Origin: an uncultured archaeon
GTDB lineage: Archaea > Thermoproteota > Nitrososphaeria > Nitrososphaerales > Gagatemarchaeaceae
Assembly: GCA_963799775.1 (NCBI GenBank)
Contig: CAWCYD010000003.1
Coordinates: 1,664,001-1,728,000, forward strand
Reading direction: 5' to 3'
DNA: 64,000 nt
Positions 3,251 to 11,281 of this stretch are shown piece after piece. Every line of letters starts with the position of its first letter. Positions within the stretch are counted from its first letter, which is position 1. The translations under genes and the position numbers were made by a program. A model generated the notes under the pieces. The model searched no databases, was not told the origin of the DNA, and worked only from the letters and a program-made list of their open reading frames with translations.

Positions 3251-3917
3251 ATGCTCCACTTTGTGATTGGGGAAGCGGCGCTCGAGCTGATTCCGGAGGA
3301 GCTCTGGCGGGGCACCCTCGGTCAAGAGCGACGCGGCCCGGCGCGACCTCAGGCCCGGGGACATCCTACTTGACAGGAGCACCCACCACTCCGCAATGCT
3401 CAAGCTTCAAGACGGGTATCGACGGGGAAGGCCAGACCTCGTCCACCTGACTCTGCTCAGCGTGACTAGCACACCCCTTCACCAGGAAGGCAAGGCCCGG
3501 GTCTACATCCAGACGATCGACGGGAATTCTCTTGAGTTCGGCGAAGGGGCGCGCCCACCCAAGAGCTACGCGAGGTTTAGGAATCTCATGGAGAAGTTGC
3601 TTGCAGAGAAGCCTGAAGAGGGCCTCGTGAGGGTGAGCGAAGAGACACTCCCGGAGCTCCTGAGAAGGATAGGGACAGACGACGCCGTGGGACTGTCAGT
3701 TCAAGGTGCCTCCATGCCTCTCGAGTCTCTCGCAGGCGACCTTGTGCAAAGAAAGAACCCTGCTGTCGTGGTGGGAGGGTTCCCAAGGGGGCATTTTCTC
3801 ACGGGCGACCTGAAGGCCTTCGACAGGCTGGTGAGGATCGACCAGCGGGCGCTCGACGCGCATGTCGTGGCGGCACGGGTGGTCTACGAATTCGAGAAGG
3901 CTCTCCGCTCGAAGTGA
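3251..3917 (+). CDS. nep1: Nep1/Emg1 16S rRNA pseudouridine N1-methyltransferase (frameshift near 3310)
   Basis: MLHFVIGEAALELIPEE..., LLDRSTHHSAM, RRGRPDLVH, RPPKSYARF and VVGGFPRGHF SPOUT motifs. Confidence 0.92.
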
Positions 3918-3922
3918 TTACT

Positions 3923-3928
3923 AAAAAA
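3923..3928 (-). terminator. U-tract terminator for the minus-strand transcript
   Basis: A6 on + (U6 on -) just after the 3' strand of the terminal stem at 3931-3944. Confidence 0.55.
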
Positions 3929-4518
3929 GGGGGATATTCGGGGTCAGTGCTCGCGCGGTCGTCACGCTAAATCCCCTTGGAGGGGAGACGGTCTAGGACT
4001 TCAGCCGTTTCTAAGACACGTGCCGCCACTGTCTCATTCGTTGCATTAGCACCATGTTCAGTCCGACCTGCTCCACTGACGTCAGGCTTGTCAGAGGAAT
4101 ACAGGTATTCATTCCTCAAATGGTGCCAAGAGGCATCCGCACTCACGGCAAACGGATGGCCGCAAAGGCGCAGTCCACGGCAGAGGATTGCCAGAGAAGC
4201 AAGCCTGTCTCTGTCGTAGTCTACACCGCATTTGACGCACCTGCTCACAGCCCAAGTTGGGTGCTCTAATTTGCCACCGCAGACGGGACATTCGGATGAA
4301 GTCCCTCTTGGGTTCACGTAAAGGGTGCGATTTTGAGATTTGTAATCAATCATAGATTGGTAGAGTCGGTATGGCCACCGATTGAGATAGGTCCTCAACC
4401 GCTTGCCCTTCGGTTCTTCGTCGCTCCTTATCCCTTTGAGATTCTCGAAAATGAAAGACGCGCCGGAATAGGTTCTGACCATCTTGGTTGATAGCTTGTG
4501 AAGTGTATCTTTGATTCT

Positions 4519-4672
4519 CCCATGTCGTCGTGTTCTGCATATTTATGCTGGACGGAAGGGCATTCTCCCATTCGCTCTCTTTGGAGCATTGTGGCTTTCG
4601 CGGTAGCCTGTGGCCCAACCTGTTCCACGCGCTCTGAGGCGCAAGAACCTAACGGGCTCTAGCTCTTTTTGC
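4519..4672 (-). ncRNA. Putative IS110 bridge/seek RNA in the 3' non-coding end
   Basis: Contains ATTCTCCCAT (4562-4571), identical to the junction at 4514-4523, and ACCTGTTC (4618-4625), identical to the junction at 5695-5702; both include the CT core. Confidence 0.65.
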
Positions 4673-5648
4673 TCAGCCGTCCAGCCTGAAGGTCTGTTCC
4701 TCCTTCAGCATGATGTACATGGCCCGCATGAGCTTCCTCGCTGCGGCCACGATCGCCACCTTCTCGCCCCTCCTCTTCGCGAGCTCCACGTAGAATTTCG
4801 TTATCGAGGAGTCGCACCACCTCACGTGGACGCGCGTGCACTGGACCATTATCCAGTTCAGCATCACGCTCCTCGTCCTGTTGGGTGTCGAGTGGCTCTT
4901 GTCCGCCGACTGTCTCAACCCTGGCACGAGGCCTGCGTACGAGCAGAGGTGCTCGTGGTCGGCGAATCTGTTCACGTCTGCGATCTCGCTCGATATCAGG
5001 AGGGCCGAGTAGTGGGAGACGCCGGGTATCGTGACGAGGAGCTTCGCATACTTGTCCTGCAGGGCGACCCCCTTCACCTTCAGGTCGAGCTCCCCGATCT
5101 TCCCGTCCAGGAACTCGATGGTGTCCATGTAGTCGTCCACCGCGTCGATGTGGAGGGACCATCAGGAACTTCCTCCCTTCCCGCGTGAAGACGTCGCCCT
5201 CGTGCTTCACCCATCGCTTCGCGAGCTCCGCCTTCACCTTGCTCTTGAACCCGGTGCGCGTCTCGACGAGGTGATGCCTCCTCCTGACGAGGTCCCTGAC
5301 CTCCCTGGTCTTCTCGTCCGGCACGTAGGACTCGGGTATCATGTCCGCCCTCAGCAGGTCCACCAGCGTCCTCGCGTCGACCTTGTCCGTCTTCACCTTT
5401 GCGTAGGCGATGGCCTTCACCATCAGCGGATGCGCGACCTTCACGTCGTATCCCTTCTCCTTCAGCACGTCGCGGATGTGCTGATGGTTGTACCCGGACT
5501 CCATGACGACGCTCGCATTTGTGCCGTCGAGGAATTCCAGTATCTTTTCTTCGTCCTTCGCCACCTTCGACTCCCTCATCACCTTTCCAGCGTCGTCCTT
5601 GAGGACGCACTGTATCGATTTCTCGTGCAGGTCTAGCGCGGCATACAT
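4673..5648 (-). CDS. IS110 transposase/recombinase (frameshift near 5155)
   Basis: DEDD residues in ALDLHEK, VMES and KTDKVDA; C-terminal LLVTIPGV...SYAGLVPGLRQSA and KVAIVAAARKL. Confidence 0.93.
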
Positions 5649-6591
5649 GCTAGTGGCTGTGGCTTTCCTTCGCCTTATCTTCTGCGAGCATCCCACCTGT
5701 TCATTTGTCTACCTCTCGTCTGCCTAAGCTTCTTCTCCCTCTTTTGCCGGTTGTTGACATGAAGCTGAATCGCCCTTCTCCTTCTTGAGAAGTCGTTCTG
5801 GATTCGGACAATGGTCGCAATTGTCTTTGTGTTGACCTGTTCTAGCTTCGTCCCGTCAGTTTCCAACCGCGCCACAGTCGAGTCTACTGTTGCGAAATTC
5901 AAGTCTGAAGCAACTAACTCTAGCCCGAGAGCCTTGTTCGCGATGCCAACCGCAAAAGTCAGACAGACTTTGCGATCGGTAATTAGAAGTTCAGCAGGTC
6001 GGCCTGATGAATATCCCAAGAAGTGCTTGTTCTTGGTGTTCATTGCAATCCAAGTGTACTTCTTAGGTTGAAGAGTCACTCTGACTCGGCTATCGACAAC
6101 CTTCATCAGTTCTCCATCAATTCTCATTGCAAGCTTCTTCACTTCAGGGATTCTTACTTCCCCGTGGTTGTTCTTTCTATGTGACCTTAGTATTGCCACT
6201 GCAGCTCTGCAAACTGGGTTGATGTGGTGCCTCGCATAGTCATACTTTGTGTAGAACCAGCCCTTTATCTCCCTCCTTAACTGAATAGGCGACGGCATTC
6301 TGCCTTCTCGAATCGCGTATCTAGATGCCTCGACTAGCGAGTACTTGATTGCCTCCTGCATATCTCTGAGATAGGCGAGCAGAAGATCGTCGGGTTCGTA
6401 ATACCAGGAGATTGTTCTCTTTTCTCCGCTAGATTTCCAGGGGTGTATTTGTATTAACCTCCGTCGATGCTTTCTAACAGGCTCAGGCCCTATAAGCACC
6501 CATTTCATGCCATGGGTTACTTTCGTGGCATTGTGGAGGATTGTTACCCGCCCAAACCCTCAATATCCCGAATAATTCCCCCTCTCATCGT

Positions 6592-6687
6592 GCGGTCGTC
6601 GTCCAGTCTGGTCTAACGTCTATAGACGTGCCAAAAGGACTTCAGCCCTCCAAGCTGGCAACCAGGGTTCAAATCCCTGCGACCGCA
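6592..6687 (+). tRNA. tRNA-Gly (anticodon read as TCC) with a 21-nt D-loop BHB intron at 6615-6635
   Basis: Acceptor GCGGTCG/CGACCGC plus A73; D stem GTCC/GGAC; BHB motif TGGT-CTA-ACGTCTATAGACGT-GCCA-AAA; anticodon stem TCAGC/GCTGG with loop CCTCCAA; T arm CAGGG-TTCAAAT-CCCTG. Confidence 0.88.
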
Positions 6688-6793
6688 CACTTACGATTAG
6701 AACCCTTGGCGTCCAAATCGCTCGAAGCGGTAAGAAGACGATTTGCTGTTGCGAGTCTCTAAAATAGCCCCTGTGCCCTAATGAAATTGGGCC

Positions 6794-8470
6794 GTGGTAA
6801 GGCAGAGATGGCTCGCATTCGCGACTGTTATCGTCGCAGCACTAATCCTAGGAGTCGCTCTTGAAATCATCAATCCACCGCCTAGTCATCAAACCGGCAG
6901 CAGTTCGATCTCCAGCATAGCCACGGCGAACTTGATTCCTACCTCGACTACATCCTCAATTCAATCTTCTTCTTCGGCGACGAGGCCCAACGTGAACTCT
7001 GCAACAACCAGCACGACCGAAACGACCTCCGCAACTCCGCCCTTGTGGACCTACTCGAGCAATGGAACGATCAACTCAATCTCTATGAGTGGCAAAGGCG
7101 AGTACACTGCAGTGGGAGTAGGTTATGGGGAGACCGGTGGAGCGGTCCTCCTTTTCGATAGGGGCGGCGACCTCCTCTGGCAGTATCAAACCGACATGAT
7201 AATTACGCATGTCGCAATTTCGGACAACGGCTCCCATATCGTGGCGACTGGGTTCCAATACCCGCCTACCCTTCCGAGCATCCTGTCCAAGGCCGCAACA
7301 GCGATCTACGCGCTCGACTCGGACGGAAGCGTAGCTTGGACTCGAACTGCATCTAGTGCGCGAGACCTCTCTTTCGAGGGGGCAATATCCTCGGATGGGC
7401 TCCTAGTGGCAGTTGCCAGTCCCGATGCTTCCCTTGCTGTGTTGGATTGGCAAGGTCAGGTACTCTGGAATGACTCTGCCCCCGTTGCGAATGCTCCAGT
7501 GGTTTTTCAGAACGGAAGCCTCTTCGTCGACGGCACCAATGGGACTTCGGTCTTCGGGCCTAGCGGTAATTTATTGTGGACGGACAACGGAGCGAATAAC
7601 GTCTGGTCGGGTGGTGTTGCGATAACGCCAACTGGATACTTGGTGGCGACGTCTTACGATGCTGGGGACAACAATCCGGGTATGATCATGCTTCTCTCAG
7701 GTAATGGTACCCTCTTGTGGGAACATACCGACGAGAGCGGGGCTTACTCTGCAGCAGTGCTTCCGGATGGGTCTTCCGTCGCTTTTACAGCCGCCGAGGG
7801 GCGAGTTCTGTTTTTCAGCCGGAATGGGACTCTCCTTGGCGATCTCACTACCCCTTCTGATTATCCGAGTGTTTTTCCAGCTCCGAAGGACAGCTTCCTC
7901 GTCGGCGGTGGACACAGCAGCGGACTGTGGCTCTTCAATTCCACTGGGGGGCAAACGTGGAGCTATCCTCTGAAGGATGTCGGCACGGTATCGATTTCGA
8001 GTGACGCCAATTTTGCGGCCGCGTCGAACGGCACTGGCGCGCTCGCTCTAGAACGCCAAAAGGCTCCTCTGAGCACCCTTTACTTCTTCAGTATGTCGAT
8101 GGCAACGGTGATGAATCCATTACACAAGGTGACTTTCCAGCAGGTAAGGTATTGCAACCAATACAACATCCTACCTTGGGCAGTAACGCTCGAGGGGATT
8201 ACCCAAGTCCAACCGCATAATCAGACCCTCCCGCTTCCGTCTAATACATTCTCCACCGTGGTTCCGGACCAGAACCTAACGCGCATTAACTTCGATGTCC
8301 TTTCTGGGACTTACAACTACACGATCATCGGTGGGGCACCTCCGGGTGGCGAGCTTTACGTGGGCAACGGGTACCAGAGTGGAACAGTTATCGTGAATGG
8401 CTCTGATGTTACCGTGAGCGTTGGGGTACAGCTCAGCTTCACGTGCACCTCATCAACCAAAGCTCCGTAA
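6794..8470 (+). CDS. Secreted or anchored beta-propeller (WD40/PQQ-like) protein with Ser/Thr linker and C-terminal surface domain
   Basis: N-terminal hydrophobic helix, S/T-rich stalk, repeated 'GxxLW' and 'AISSDG' blades. Confidence 0.75.
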   Translation: MVRQRWLAFATVIVAALILGVALEIINPPPSHQTGSSSISSIATANLIPTSTTSSIQSSSSATRPNVNSATTSTTETTSATPPLWTYSSNGTINSISMSGKGEYTAVGVGYGETGGAVLLFDRGGDLLWQYQTDMIITHVAISDNGSHIVATGFQYPPTLPSILSKAATAIYALDSDGSVAWTRTASSARDLSFEGAISSDGLLVAVASPDASLAVLDWQGQVLWNDSAPVANAPVVFQNGSLFVDGTNGTSVFGPSGNLLWTDNGANNVWSGGVAITPTGYLVATSYDAGDNNPGMIMLLSGNGTLLWEHTDESGAYSAAVLPDGSSVAFTAAEGRVLFFSRNGTLLGDLTTPSDYPSVFPAPKDSFLVGGGHSSGLWLFNSTGGQTWSYPLKDVGTVSISSDANFAAASNGTGALALERQKAPLSTLYFFSMSMATVMNPLHKVTFQQVRYCNQYNILPWAVTLEGITQVQPHNQTLPLPSNTFSTVVPDQNLTRINFDVLSGTYNYTIIGGAPPGGELYVGNGYQSGTVIVNGSDVTVSVGVQLSFTCTSSTKAP

Positions 8471-8589
8471 TGAACCAACGGGATGCTATGGGAAGCCCCA
8501 CCGATTTGAACGCAAACCTTCAAATTCGCTGCGACCGCACAGTTCAAACTCATTAGACGCCTGCTTTGACCTCGGAAGTCCCGGCTGCG

Positions 8590-8961
8590 CTAGTTTCCGC
8601 CGTTATGATGGCGACTGTGATGGTCGTAGTTCGCTGCGTGCGAACCGCGTCTTTGGAGGGTGAAGAGCAATGCGGCACCGAGACCGACCATCGCGAGACC
8701 GACGAGGCCCCATGCGGCACCTGGATTGATTACCTCGCTCAGGTAAGTGACTAGGCCGATGAGCGAGAAGATGACCCCCGCGGAGACCGCCACCGCCCCC
8801 AGGAGGCCGATGGCCATCGCCTTGACGGCCCTTCGGACGGTCTTGTCGACGAAGACCTCCACGTCGCGCTTCAGGACGTCCGCGTAGTCGTCGACGCCTT
8901 CCTTCACGTGGTCAAACACTTGGTCTACGATTTGTTGGACGGCCTTGGAGACGAACGACAA
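8590..8961 (-). CDS. YqjE/phage-holin-like membrane protein
   Basis: Amphipathic N-terminus plus two TM helices; follows an ElaB-like gene. Confidence 0.6.
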   Translation of the reverse strand: MSFVSKAVQQIVDQVFDHVKEGVDDYADVLKRDVEVFVDKTVRRAVKAMAIGLLGAVAVSAGVIFSLIGLVTYLSEVINPGAAWGLVGLAMVGLGAALLFTLQRRGSHAANYDHHSRHHNGGN

Positions 8962-8969
8962 CCGTCAGA

Positions 8970-9296
8970 CTACTCTTTGCTCTTTCGCCCAAGGATTACG
9001 CCTAGAATGACACCTGCGAGCACTCCTGTTCCGAGCGCATATCCTACCGCGGTCAGAGGCTTCTCCCGGATGGCGTCCCTGCCCGGCTCGACGTACTCGT
9101 CAATATGCTTGAGCAGGTCTGAAAGCCTCTCCTCGAGCTCGCTCTTGAGAACGTCAAGCGACTCCTCGGCGCTGGCCATCCCCTTTCCACTCCCAATCTC
9201 TGTTTGAATGTCATGTATTCGGCGCTCAAAGTCCTTCTTCAGGCCTTTGACGGCATCGTCTAGTGACTGCTCCTTTCCATTGGTTCTTGATGCCAA
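8970..9296 (-). CDS. ElaB/YqjD (DUF883)-like tail-anchored protein
   Basis: Coiled N-terminus and IREKPLTAVGYALGTGVLAGVILG..RK C-terminal motif. Confidence 0.75.
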   Translation of the reverse strand: MASRTNGKEQSLDDAVKGLKKDFERRIHDIQTEIGSGKGMASAEESLDVLKSELEERLSDLLKHIDEYVEPGRDAIREKPLTAVGYALGTGVLAGVILGVILGRKSKE

Positions 9297-9526
9297 GATT
9301 CTTCGATAGGAAGAGCGTGCGGTTCGTATTTAATGGTGACAGGACATTCTTCTGGTCGAGTCATCCATAGCGACTCTTGGCTCGGCCGTTCTGCCCCGAT
9401 CAGACGCTCAGCTCCCCAGATGATTGCTGGATGCGAGTGGTCGTATCCGGGCGTTCGGGCTACATTCTACGTCGGTTCAAGAGCAGACTCCATATCATCG
9501 ATTCATAGCATGCTTGGGATACTCTA

Positions 9527-10363
9527 TTGGGTCTGAATCCATCCACTATATCGATGTCTATGTTCCCGAAGGCTCCTAGTGTAAAACGCGCCCTTGATGT
9601 ATTCGTGATGTTTGTTCTGCTGGCTTTCGCCGTGGCGATAATCCCTCTGAGCGCCGCGCATGCCCAGACGCAGCCCAGCGTTACGGTAAACTCCACCGAC
9701 ATGAACTCCAATCCGATCACAGGCTACTATGTCGTCCTGTCCGGTTCGGGCGGGAATCAGGCGGCGACAGGATTCACTCCGACGAATTTTAGCGTCATCG
9801 CTGGAGCCTCATATAGCGTCCAGGCGGACAGCTACGGGAATTGCACTTTCAATCACTGGTCCGGTGGAGTGAAGAACAACCCCATGTCGTTCACCGCGAC
9901 AAGTGGGACCACTTCGTTCACTGCGGCGTACAACTGCAACAGCACCGGTAGCGGAGGAGGAGGCGGCAGCGCGACCACAGGCGAGAGCGGCGCAGGACTG
10001 GGGACCATAACCATCTACGATCACAGGGCCCCCCAGTCTGACTGGGCGTCCTGCTTCGCGACGGTGTGCAACGCCGGCACGGGCCCGGGAGCGGCCATGT
10101 GGGTGACGCTCTATGACTCGTCCGGGTCAGTGGTGGCAACTGGGTTCTCCAACGAGAACGGGCTCACGTTCTCCGGGCTCAACCCCTCTGCTACGTACTA
10201 CCTCTATCCGGCGGACTGCGACCAATGCCACACCTCTACGCACGACGTGTTGTTCAACAACTGGGGCACTGGGAGCGACAACACCAGGCCGTTGGCCGTG
10301 GTTGCCAACGGGAGCTTCGTGGATGCCTGGTATATCTGCACGAACGGCTGCGGCGGCGTCTAG
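9527..10363 (+). CDS. Secreted Cys-containing protein with two beta-sandwich repeats
   Basis: Signal peptide ending AHA; VTVNSTDMNSNPITGYY...YGNCTFNHWS repeat also present in 28698-30251. True start probably near 9554-9560. Confidence 0.7.
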   Translation: MGLNPSTISMSMFPKAPSVKRALDVFVMFVLLAFAVAIIPLSAAHAQTQPSVTVNSTDMNSNPITGYYVVLSGSGGNQAATGFTPTNFSVIAGASYSVQADSYGNCTFNHWSGGVKNNPMSFTATSGTTSFTAAYNCNSTGSGGGGGSATTGESGAGLGTITIYDHRAPQSDWASCFATVCNAGTGPGAAMWVTLYDSSGSVVATGFSNENGLTFSGLNPSATYYLYPADCDQCHTSTHDVLFNNWGTGSDNTRPLAVVANGSFVDAWYICTNGCGGV

Positions 10364-10480
10364 ACACGAGCCGGCATGCCTGACTTCTGTTTCAGGTCGT
10401 CGCCACACGCGGGACGCGACCAAGCCTTGGCCTACGCGTGAGCGGGCAGCTCTCCGACATTAAATAACGAAAGAATCTGA

Positions 10481-10918
10481 GTGACTCCGGACGCCAGCAG
10501 GATATTCGGGGACGCCGCTCGTGCAGAAGCTCGGAATCAAGCAAGGAGACGTGCTCGCTATTCTCCATGCCCCTCAAGGTTACGATGCGGTCTTGGGGGA
10601 GCTCCCGGAAGATGTGACCGTGATTCGAGAGACGAAGGTCTCGTCGACGTCATCCAGCTCTTCGCGAGAAGCGAGGCGGATTTGAAAAGAGAATTCGCAG
10701 AGGCAAAGGCCAGCCTCAAGCAAGCCGGGATGGTCTGGGTATGCTGGCCGAAGAAGTCGTCGAAGATGCAGACCGACCTGAGCGACAATGTGGTGAGAAA
10801 GATCGGGTTGGCGGGCGGGTTGGTCGACGTCAAGGTCTGCGCCATCGACGAGGACTGGTCTGGTCTGAAATTTGTAAGAAGAACGAAAGATAGACGTGCT
10901 TCTTCTATCGGTGCTTAA
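10481..10918 (+). CDS. DUF3052-family protein (frameshift)
   Basis: AGYSGTPLVQKLGIK in an alternative frame; WVCWPKKSS...GLVDVKVCAIDEDWSGLKFV. Confidence 0.8.
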   Translation: MTPDASRIFGDAARAEARNQARRRARYSPCPSRLRCGLGGAPGRCDRDSRDEGLVDVIQLFARSEADLKREFAEAKASLKQAGMVWVCWPKKSSKMQTDLSDNVVRKIGLAGGLVDVKVCAIDEDWSGLKFVRRTKDRRASSIGA

Positions 10919-10942
10919 TTATCGGGCGCGCCCTCTTGGTCG

Positions 10943-11281
10943 ATGAGCCGACCCGACCCGGGCAAGCCCCTCGTCACAATCTCCGTCTTCCTGTTCGGGA
11001 AGCCGGCGTGGGAGATCGACGGTCTGGAGGGGTCACCGGTGGACCTCCAGCTCTTGAGCGCGATAGCGATGTGTGGGGAGGAGCTCGGCAAGAGGCTGGC
11101 GAGGGCAGCCGAGCTGGGTAGGAGGCTCGTGGCGAACGGCTGGGAGGGCTACGGCCTCCTCTACGCACTGGAGTTCTACAAGACGGTGGCTCTGAAGGAC
11201 GCTGAGGACGAGTTGCGCGCCATGCGCATAGAGCCGGACGAGGTCTCCCTCAGGGAGGAGGTCGAGGAGCCGGAAGACTAG
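10943..11281 (+). CDS. Hypothetical protein
   Basis: 112-aa ORF with host-like codon usage and acidic tail. Confidence 0.6.
   Translation: MSRPDPGKPLVTISVFLFGKPAWEIDGLEGSPVDLQLLSAIAMCGEELGKRLARAAELGRRLVANGWEGYGLLYALEFYKTVALKDAEDELRAMRIEPDEVSLREEVEEPED

Follow-up and report, generated by a model that had tools for sequence, protein, structure and literature searches.

In a 64,000-nucleotide stretch of genomic DNA from an uncultured archaeon of the family Gagatemarchaeaceae (contig CAWCYD010000003.1; the whole stretch is referred to here as the window), two short segments downstream of the gene nep1 are, on the minus strand, antisense to a tRNA-Gly(UCC) gene, and the longer one matches the tRNA only in its spliced form. 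The locus thus raises the question of whether the segments belong to an RNA that acts on the tRNA, as an earlier reading of the window made without database searches (the sequence-only reading) had proposed, or whether they arose in some other way. Comparison with related genomes argues for the latter: the tRNA-Gly(UCC) gene was very probably split by a tnpB element that lacks tnpA and belongs to an IS607-like family, and was rebuilt with a new promoter and 5′ half.

We propose that the tnpB element inserted at the GG of the anticodon loop/stem of the resident tRNA-Gly(UCC) gene, which would have left the resident promoter, leader, and nucleotides (nt) 1–32 stranded beside its right end (3920–4006), where decay appears to have begun. 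On the left-end side, an 88-nt segment would have supplied another promoter, another leader, and a new intron-bearing 5′ part, and this segment together with the old tRNA 3′ part would constitute the working gene. On this model, the tRNA-Gly gene still works because a new promoter and an intron-bearing front half stand on the other side of the transposon; the left stretch looks antisense because the tRNA fragment fills the guide position of a putative omegaRNA; and the match is to the spliced form only because the allele from which the stranded copy derives lacked that intron.

The stranded front and the working tRNA-Gly gene

The DNA downstream of nep1, which has orthologues in 20 of the 22 genomes of the genus (identity 53–82%), was taken from 14 relatives. 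A tRNA-Gly(UCC) gene directly follows nep1, within ~60 nt, in 11 of them, and the conserved spacer contains an A-rich box, the motif GG..GAT.TTCG.GG, and a leader ending in ..CTCGC. Window positions 3920–4006 align with this spacer and with the first ~32 nt of the tRNA gene, and the supposed antisense elements are therefore 5′ pieces of the resident gene with its native promoter, here called P1. By blastn, P1 is 85–90% identical over 40–42 nt to the metagenome contigs L069 and L070. In two relatives, G019 and G020 (loci L015 and L019), a 0.55-kb stretch with a small opposite-strand open reading frame (ORF) of ~0.5 kb separates nep1 from a tRNA-Gly gene that has a third kind of upstream region, and a further relative, G005, has no tRNA in the first 330 nt after nep1. 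The TnpB matches within the genus are located elsewhere than at nep1 loci.

The individual matches reported by the sequence-only reading hold. Segment 3990–4006 (GGTCTAGGACTTCAGCC) is identical at 17 of 17 positions to 6610–6614 joined to 6636–6647, that is, to the tRNA without 6615–6635, so that the match does depend on the absence of the intron; it comprises the 3′ part of the D-loop, the D-stem, and the 5′ strand of the anticodon stem. Segment 3955–3963 equals tRNA nt 1–9, as can be read directly from the sequence, and the four bases before each copy (TCGC at 3951–3954, TCGT in the other leader) differ once. Between the two segments, 26 nt (3964–3989) replace GTCCAGTCT; conjecturally, they are the remnant of a decayed D-loop intron. 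The CCCC/GGGG hairpin is also present (3973–3985). These matches reflect homology by descent, beyond chance: the two segments are what survives, in two pieces, of the 5′ part of the original tRNA gene after its displacement. The sequence-only reading had itself named a decayed tRNA duplicate found only in this genome as something that would speak against its RNA, and the decayed-duplicate half of that description applies here. The GG (CC on the plus strand, 4005–4006) at which the stranded fragment stops is the very GG of the transposon's right end.

Contigs from four soil sequencing runs cover the stretch in part, mainly the IS110 copy described below; two short ones match 3724–3999 and 3816–3974 without differences, and none spans the junction at 4005 or that at 6558.

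ARAGORN does not call the unspliced tRNA-Gly gene at the far end of the element, and when its exons are joined by coordinate a 75-nt tRNA-Gly(UCC) is obtained. The 33 nt upstream of this working gene, here called P2, are non-orthologous to P1, which holds the place of P2 in 13 element-free loci. A search of 41 relatives with 6560–6700 recovered tRNA exons only, never P2 or the intron, and the nearest relatives have their intron at a site other than that used in the working gene. When a pattern for the same-site intron was searched, there were no matches in representative genome contigs or in viral contigs, and three in metagenome contigs (L068, L069, and L070); because these were picked by the pattern, they carry no information on how common the site is. 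L069 and L070 are ordinary nep1–P1–tRNA loci with a homologous intron, which in L070 is identical at 20 of 21 positions.

L068 is a second carrier of the arrangement. It has a frameshifted tnpB N-terminus (60–77% amino acid identity), the left end, a P2-like spacer identical at 13 of 13 positions in CCTCAATATCCCG, and a tRNA-Gly gene with the same-site intron; the contig ends inside tnpB. P2-like sequence is found elsewhere only in this contig, again beside a tnpB left end. The genes downstream in L068 are orthologous to those next to the tRNA-Gly genes of relatives, and the tnpB–P2–tRNA arrangement is old, being present in two diverged genomes. One short downstream protein is 77.6% identical between the window and L068, but L068 is as close to G018 (79.5%), so that this comparison favors neither a vertical nor a horizontal origin of the module.

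The tnpB element, its ends, and its omegaRNA scaffold

The element (~4005–6558, minus strand) lies between the P1 fragment and the working gene and has tnpB as the sole gene of its own. When 4517–5702 (1186 bp) are left out by coordinate, a tnpB frame of 451 amino acids results, and the tnpB piece in the window contains a Cas12f1-like TNB domain (PF07282, 41.3 bits against a cut-off of 26.3). The D, E, and D of the motifs DLNF, FE(D/N)L, and DY.R..LAS are invariant across six aligned proteins, and we take these candidate residues to be the RuvC triad; the ancestral element presumably encoded an active nuclease. TnpB homologues are found in 10 of 61 relatives and, at E <= 1e-25, in 13 of 401 genomes of the class, with no relatives in viral contigs. 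Several are preceded by a gene coding for a MerR-type helix-turn-helix (HTH)/resolvase protein, and the one at locus L045 matches PF00239 and PF13411 and scores 202.5 bits (cut-off 110) on the IS607 transposase model NF033518, which makes the family IS607-like.

The boundaries of the element are well defined by its relatives. All 27 homologous 3′ regions stop at AACGG or AATCGG, so that ..CGG is common to 28 of 28 sequences with the window included, and the flanks past this point are unrelated among the 27 homologues except in one orthologous pair. In the window, the right end is at ...AGAAACGG, at the GG of the anticodon loop; it falls at 4005, and the next bases, CTGAAGTCCTAGACC, are antisense to the tRNA. 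Left ends begin with GGG in 10 of 10 junctions, preceded by A in eight, T in one, and G in one, and the minus-strand insertion site GGAGGG|CTGAAG fits the WGGG target motif of the family. The family thus has a GG core at both junctions without target-site duplication. A GG core and a TGGG target-adjacent motif (TAM) are described for a Clostridium IS607 element in the available text of 10.1101/2023.11.20.567912, with which the ends of the window element and its family agree. A repeat of the right-end flank beyond the left end is absent from 27 of 28 family members, and the window is the sole member with one because of the tRNA.

Other homologous loci gave no comparable tRNA junction. Rfam models at the gathering threshold identified two ordinary tRNAs in 20 of these loci, neither adjoining an element end; ARAGORN found five tRNAs in 33 loci, none abutting an element end; and the right-end/tRNA junction pattern has no match in representative genome contigs. 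We also observed that the tnpB frame in the window misses the usual stop of the family before the right end and runs 12 codons into the tRNA fragment (3967–4005). In the anticodon loop, CCTCCAA (window 6625–6660), position 33 is occupied by C instead of the usual U, both here and in every relative listed. C33 is rare, and it places GGG, the motif targeted by the transposon family, on the opposite strand.

In TnpB systems, the omegaRNA scaffold extends across the 3′ end of the gene and the guide is read from the flank. In an alignment of 28 sequences, the 200 nt before the right end are conserved beyond coding expectation, and RNAalifold predicts 30 pairs, 17 of which show compensatory change. 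Paired cells amount to 94.7%, as compared with 35–59% when partners are slid by one to three columns; the slid controls have 6–11 compensatory pairs, and the covariation score of 0.467 (<= 0.146 in the controls) was reached by none of 500 shuffles. The helices are 4179–4175/4148–4144, 4139–4137/4041–4039, 4129–4121/4054–4046, 4105–4101/4071–4067, and 4097–4090/4080–4073, followed by a terminal hairpin at ~4034–4014, and the window's own sequence folds into all of them. A structured RNA thus overlies the 3′ end of tnpB, stops at the right end, and is followed by variable flank, and we identify it by comparative prediction as the TnpB omegaRNA scaffold. By analogy with characterized systems, an omegaRNA was probably produced at this locus and 3985–4004 may have served as its guide; since the guide would be whatever DNA follows the right end, antisense tRNA-Gly would stand at the guide position here, and the first 15 nt of that position are indeed antisense to tRNA-Gly. 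The sequence-only reading was therefore right about an unannotated structured minus-strand RNA lying beside sequence antisense to tRNA-Gly, and wrong in assigning it to an unrecognized class. The coordinates of the features are collected in Table 1.

Table 1. Features of the nep1–tRNA-Gly(UCC) locus, in window coordinates
Feature	Position	Strand	Basis
nep1 (EMG1/NEP1 methyltransferase), conserved left neighbor of tRNA-Gly	3396–3917	+	Pfam PF03587, 108 bits
P1, native promoter and leader of tRNA-Gly (with A-rich box, GGGGGATATTCGGGG, and leader ..CTCGC)	3920–3954	+	Alignment with nep1–tRNA-Gly spacers of relatives
Displaced 5′ part of the original tRNA-Gly gene	3955–4006	+	Alignment with relatives; end at the GG common with the transposon right end
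Putative omegaRNA guide position, 20 nt past the right end	3985–4004	-	Boundary from 27 homologous elements; guide role from the TnpB paradigm
Right end and predicted omegaRNA scaffold, overlapping the tnpB 3′ end	4005–4179	-	Alignment of 28 sequences, RNAalifold
tnpB 3′ part (TNB zinc finger, last RuvC motif)	3967–4516	-	Pfam PF07282, 41.3 bits; NF040570, E = 1.7e-17
IS110-family insertion breaking tnpB, its own transposase frameshifted	4517–5702	-	Pfam PF01548 and PF02371; NF033542
tnpB 5′ part	5703–6508	-	47–62% identity to full-length homologues
Left end of the element, minus-strand start GGGTTTGGGCGGGTAAC	6509–6558	-	Left-end starts compared in 10 family members
P2, non-orthologous upstream region and leader (..TCAATATCCCGAATAATT..CATCGT), presumed promoter of the working gene	6559–6591	+	Comparison with element-free loci
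Working gene for tRNA-Gly(UCC); D-loop intron of 21 nt, 6615–6635	6592–6687	+	ARAGORN on joined exons

Competing explanations and published precedents

The sequence-only reading envisaged a dedicated minus-strand RNA of ~220–250 nt that binds the spliced, leader-bearing 5′ half of tRNA-Gly, as a guide for processing, editing, or modification or as a ribozyme. We give this almost no credence, even though the antisense matches are exact, a minus-strand transcript over 4004–3951 would pair with the tRNA, and the region is unclaimed by any Rfam family. The matches are an orthologous gene fragment with its promoter, and because the other 27 family members have unrelated sequence past ..AACGG, the antisense part is flank and not conserved RNA. 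Nor are the proposed helices those of the conserved RNA (4179–4039). The ends do pair (12 of 14 positions between the reverse complement of 3931–3944 and 6556–6569), but this helix bridges 1.37 kb of transposon and 1.19 kb of IS110, and one of its arms is a promoter outside the element; the complementarity of 6525–6530 and 4024–4029 (6 bp, one G-U) is likewise real but unremarkable between sites 2.5 kb apart, with one arm within the conserved omegaRNA terminal hairpin. The boxes and terminator correspond to tRNA and promoter sequence read on the opposite strand, the C′/D-like 'GTGACGA' being the reverse complement of the acceptor-stem start and the 'U6 terminator' that of the A-rich box in the original tRNA promoter, and the 'inserts' to be left out of the RNA include the tnpB gene itself. 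At E <= 1, cmscan of 3300–7000 returned a partial tRNA match only (21 bits, to the unspliced gene) and no match to a curated box C/D sRNA or other RNA-family covariance model. We found nothing in support of a processing, editing, or ribozyme role, and by analogy with characterized TnpB systems the target of a guide here would be DNA rather than pre-tRNA. Annotators should be warned that antisense tRNA matches beside a tnpB gene may be a displaced gene half.

The pairing of the supposed ends is explained by a motif, GGGATATT, that stands on the plus strand in P1 and on the minus strand in P2 (3931–3944; 6556–6575); it also occurs on the plus strand in the upstream region of G019 and G020. This inverted resemblance between P1 and P2 is modest, being reached by 3 of 2000 mononucleotide shuffles, and the motif could be a promoter element or could be due to chance. 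We considered the terminal pairing as inverted repeats of the transposon and rejected this, the arm at 3931–3944 being orthologous promoter sequence outside the element.

Two other explanations accept that the left copy is a tRNA-gene fragment and differ as to how it came to be there. That the locus is an attachment (att)-type scar of a larger integrase-bearing plasmid or virus, later deleted almost wholly, with the tnpB element as a passenger, is improbable. Integrative elements that target tRNA genes classically leave direct repeats of a tRNA part around foreign DNA, with the gene rebuilt; the authors of the Caldiarchaeum study read their own locus in this way in the available text of PMC3293823, and integration on the 5′ side, which we count for this explanation, is known but rare in Thaumarchaeota according to the accessible part of PMC6563490. 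However, no integrase was found between 4007 and 6591, where the four scanned ORFs (overlapping ones being left aside) match only the tnpB and IS110 families; just 88 nt lie outside the canonical element, and L068 has the same tight tnpB–P2–tRNA arrangement. In addition, the stranded fragment breaks off precisely at the right-end GG core, which points to the serine-recombinase chemistry of this family. A partial tandem duplication of the tRNA-Gly 5′ region, followed by an unlinked insertion of the tnpB element into the dispensable upstream copy, is highly improbable. P2 does hold an inverted P1 motif (CCCGAATA..TCCCCCT), the similarity evaluated above, which hints at local rearrangement, and IS607 elements insert at many GG sites (10.1101/2023.11.20.567912, available text). 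Against this, a tandem copy would be expected to carry P1 and not another upstream region, the intron histories of the two copies differ, none of the relatives examined has the duplication without the element, and P2 occurs only beside a tnpB left end (2 of 2, in the window and L068).

The splitting of the gene by a TnpA-less IS607-like element also has points that weigh against it. On NF040570, the window fragment scores 63.8 bits and L042 86.7 bits, both below the curated cut-off of 100, with E values in the range of 1.7e-17 to 1.8e-24. From the left end to tnpB the window has no tnpA (serine recombinase) ORF while L045 has one, so the window copy is a TnpA-less derivative and not a complete IS607 element. 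Its tnpB is not intact, being interrupted by IS110, and that of L068 is frameshifted; the system is therefore a fossil today. The right-end flank is repeated beyond the left end in only one of 28 family members and thus is no family habit. The segment at 3964–3989 is only weakly similar to the D-loop introns of the nearest relatives (G011, G017, and G008), two element-free loci (L069 and L070) have the same intron site as the working gene, and a special link between the intron and TnpB is conjectural. ARAGORN also finds few clean tRNAs in the genome, and both the omegaRNA and tRNA splicing are predicted here from sequence alone. Finally, the 88 extra nt (P2 and the new 5′ half) are unexplained by plain IS607 insertion. 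The new 5′ half may have arrived through an aberrant excision that carried P2 and the tRNA front of the donor, through homing by recombination from a donor already so structured, or through an att-type event.

The closest known relative of the proposed system is that of IS607 with TnpB and omegaRNA in Clostridium botulinum. As far as the available text of 10.1101/2023.11.20.567912 goes, the likenesses are a GG core at both ends with no target duplication, a WGGG target or TAM-like motif, a scaffold overlapping the tnpB 3′ end with a guide from the right-end flank, and a MerR-HTH serine recombinase, encoded here by relatives of the window element. Unlike that system, the window copy has no tnpA, is broken by IS110, and codes for a protein distant from curated TnpB models; the tRNA gene in which it sits receives a new 5′ part next to the left end. 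IStrons (IS607 or IS605 elements with a group I intron, same text) are likewise TnpB transposons that limit the damage of insertion into a gene. Whereas their transcript is repaired by self-splicing, the repair here would be at the DNA level, via a spare promoter and 5′ half, and the intron is a protein-spliced archaeal tRNA intron outside the transposon proper.

The published case most similar in outcome is the tRNA-Thr(GGU) gene of Caldiarchaeum subterraneum (Sugahara et al. 2012, PMC3293823). In the text available from that source, a 5′ tRNA fragment retains its original upstream region, a repeated element of 1.4–1.9 kb is inserted, and the new 5′ part of the rebuilt gene brings an extra D-arm intron; the 1,868-bp insertion, new intron included, begins where the 5′ fragment ends and reaches nt 27 of the rebuilt gene. 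The window shows the same order of parts as the Sugahara model of tRNA disruption mediated by mobile genetic elements: a 5′ fragment that keeps its native upstream region, then the insertion of a repeated element, then a rebuilt gene whose replaced part contains a new intron. The two differ in phylum and tRNA, the ORF in Caldiarchaeum is on the strand of the tRNA, and the element there is unclassified, the words 'transposase', 'OrfB', and 'IS605' being absent from the text of PMC3293823 in its available form, whereas here the element is a predicted TnpB/omegaRNA transposon with the tRNA fragment in guide position. Integrative elements that target tRNA genes (SSV1- and pNOB8-type; PMC3293823 and PMC6563490, available text) also flank foreign DNA with a direct repeat of a tRNA part and rebuild the gene from an element-borne copy; in contrast, here there is no tyrosine integrase among the scanned ORFs, the 5′ and not the 3′ part is replaced, and the boundary coincides with a serine-recombinase GG core. 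Full-text literature searches found no paper on a TnpB or IS607 element that splits and rebuilds a tRNA gene. The claim of a new class of tRNA-directed RNA thus gives way to a documented case of archaeal tRNA-gene fragmentation and intron gain, in which the mobile element can be named as an RNA-guided TnpB transposon, a step that the one published precedent does not take in the available text of PMC3293823.

tRNA introns and other insertions at the locus

The D-loop intron of the working gene interrupts the target of the putative guide after 10 nt, and the D-loop introns of tRNA-Gly genes in the genus are at protospacer positions 8|9, 10|11, 13|14, and 18|19, all within the first 20 nt. These positions fit the idea that introns shield tRNA genes, which is discussed in the available text of PMC3293823. 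We considered, tentatively, a single selfish module that specializes on tRNA-Gly(UCC) and comprises the tnpB element, P2, and the 5′ half with its intron, the intron shielding the rebuilt gene. In such a module the spare promoter and 5′ half would pay for the disruption; a guide consisting of tRNA sequence would have a target conserved across species, which would suit homing into empty alleles; and since the intron splits the protospacer after 10 nt, the rebuilt gene would escape the module's own nuclease. We think this unlikely: both tnpB copies are dead, the intron site is also present in loci without the element, only one of 28 family members is inside a tRNA, and the scarcity of clean tRNAs in the genome weakens it further. 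If it were true, the unusually varied D-loop introns of tRNA-Gly in the genus would be marks of conflict with an RNA-guided nuclease, and the locus would be a concrete case for the long-held view of archaeal tRNA introns as protection against mobile elements. With the stranded tRNA piece exactly where a guide would be read, the shielding idea (PMC3293823, available text) becomes testable, and the question is whether an intron in the protospacer blocks cleavage by this TnpB family.

With introns allowed, ARAGORN makes 37 tRNA calls over the whole genome (G000); many of these have 'introns' of implausible length, and many isoacceptors are absent. This suggests either that non-canonical introns are widespread or that the assembly, 82% complete, has gaps. 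The orthologous tRNA-Gly(UCC) genes (loci L014–L027 and L068–L070, and those of G019 and G020) have one to three introns at changing sites, namely, four in the D-loop, one at 37/38, and one in the variable region. L020 has three introns, and only L022 has none in the D-loop region.

The IS110-family element that interrupts tnpB has two further copies in the genome at 99.7% identity (G000 C3:457314–458503 and C2:226490–228028). The NCBIfam name for this family is 'RNA-guided transposase'. In the window copy, an additional base near 5161, absent from the contigs of all four soil runs, splits the transposase; partial repeats of 180 nt follow the C2 copy in tandem.

On the other side of the working gene, a small gene (10934–11254) stands directly downstream of the tRNA in G018, G016, and L068. 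In the window, ~4.2 kb (6690–10930) with an ORF for a 558-amino-acid beta-propeller protein (6794–8470) lie between it and tRNA-Gly, and this stretch is probably another insertion.

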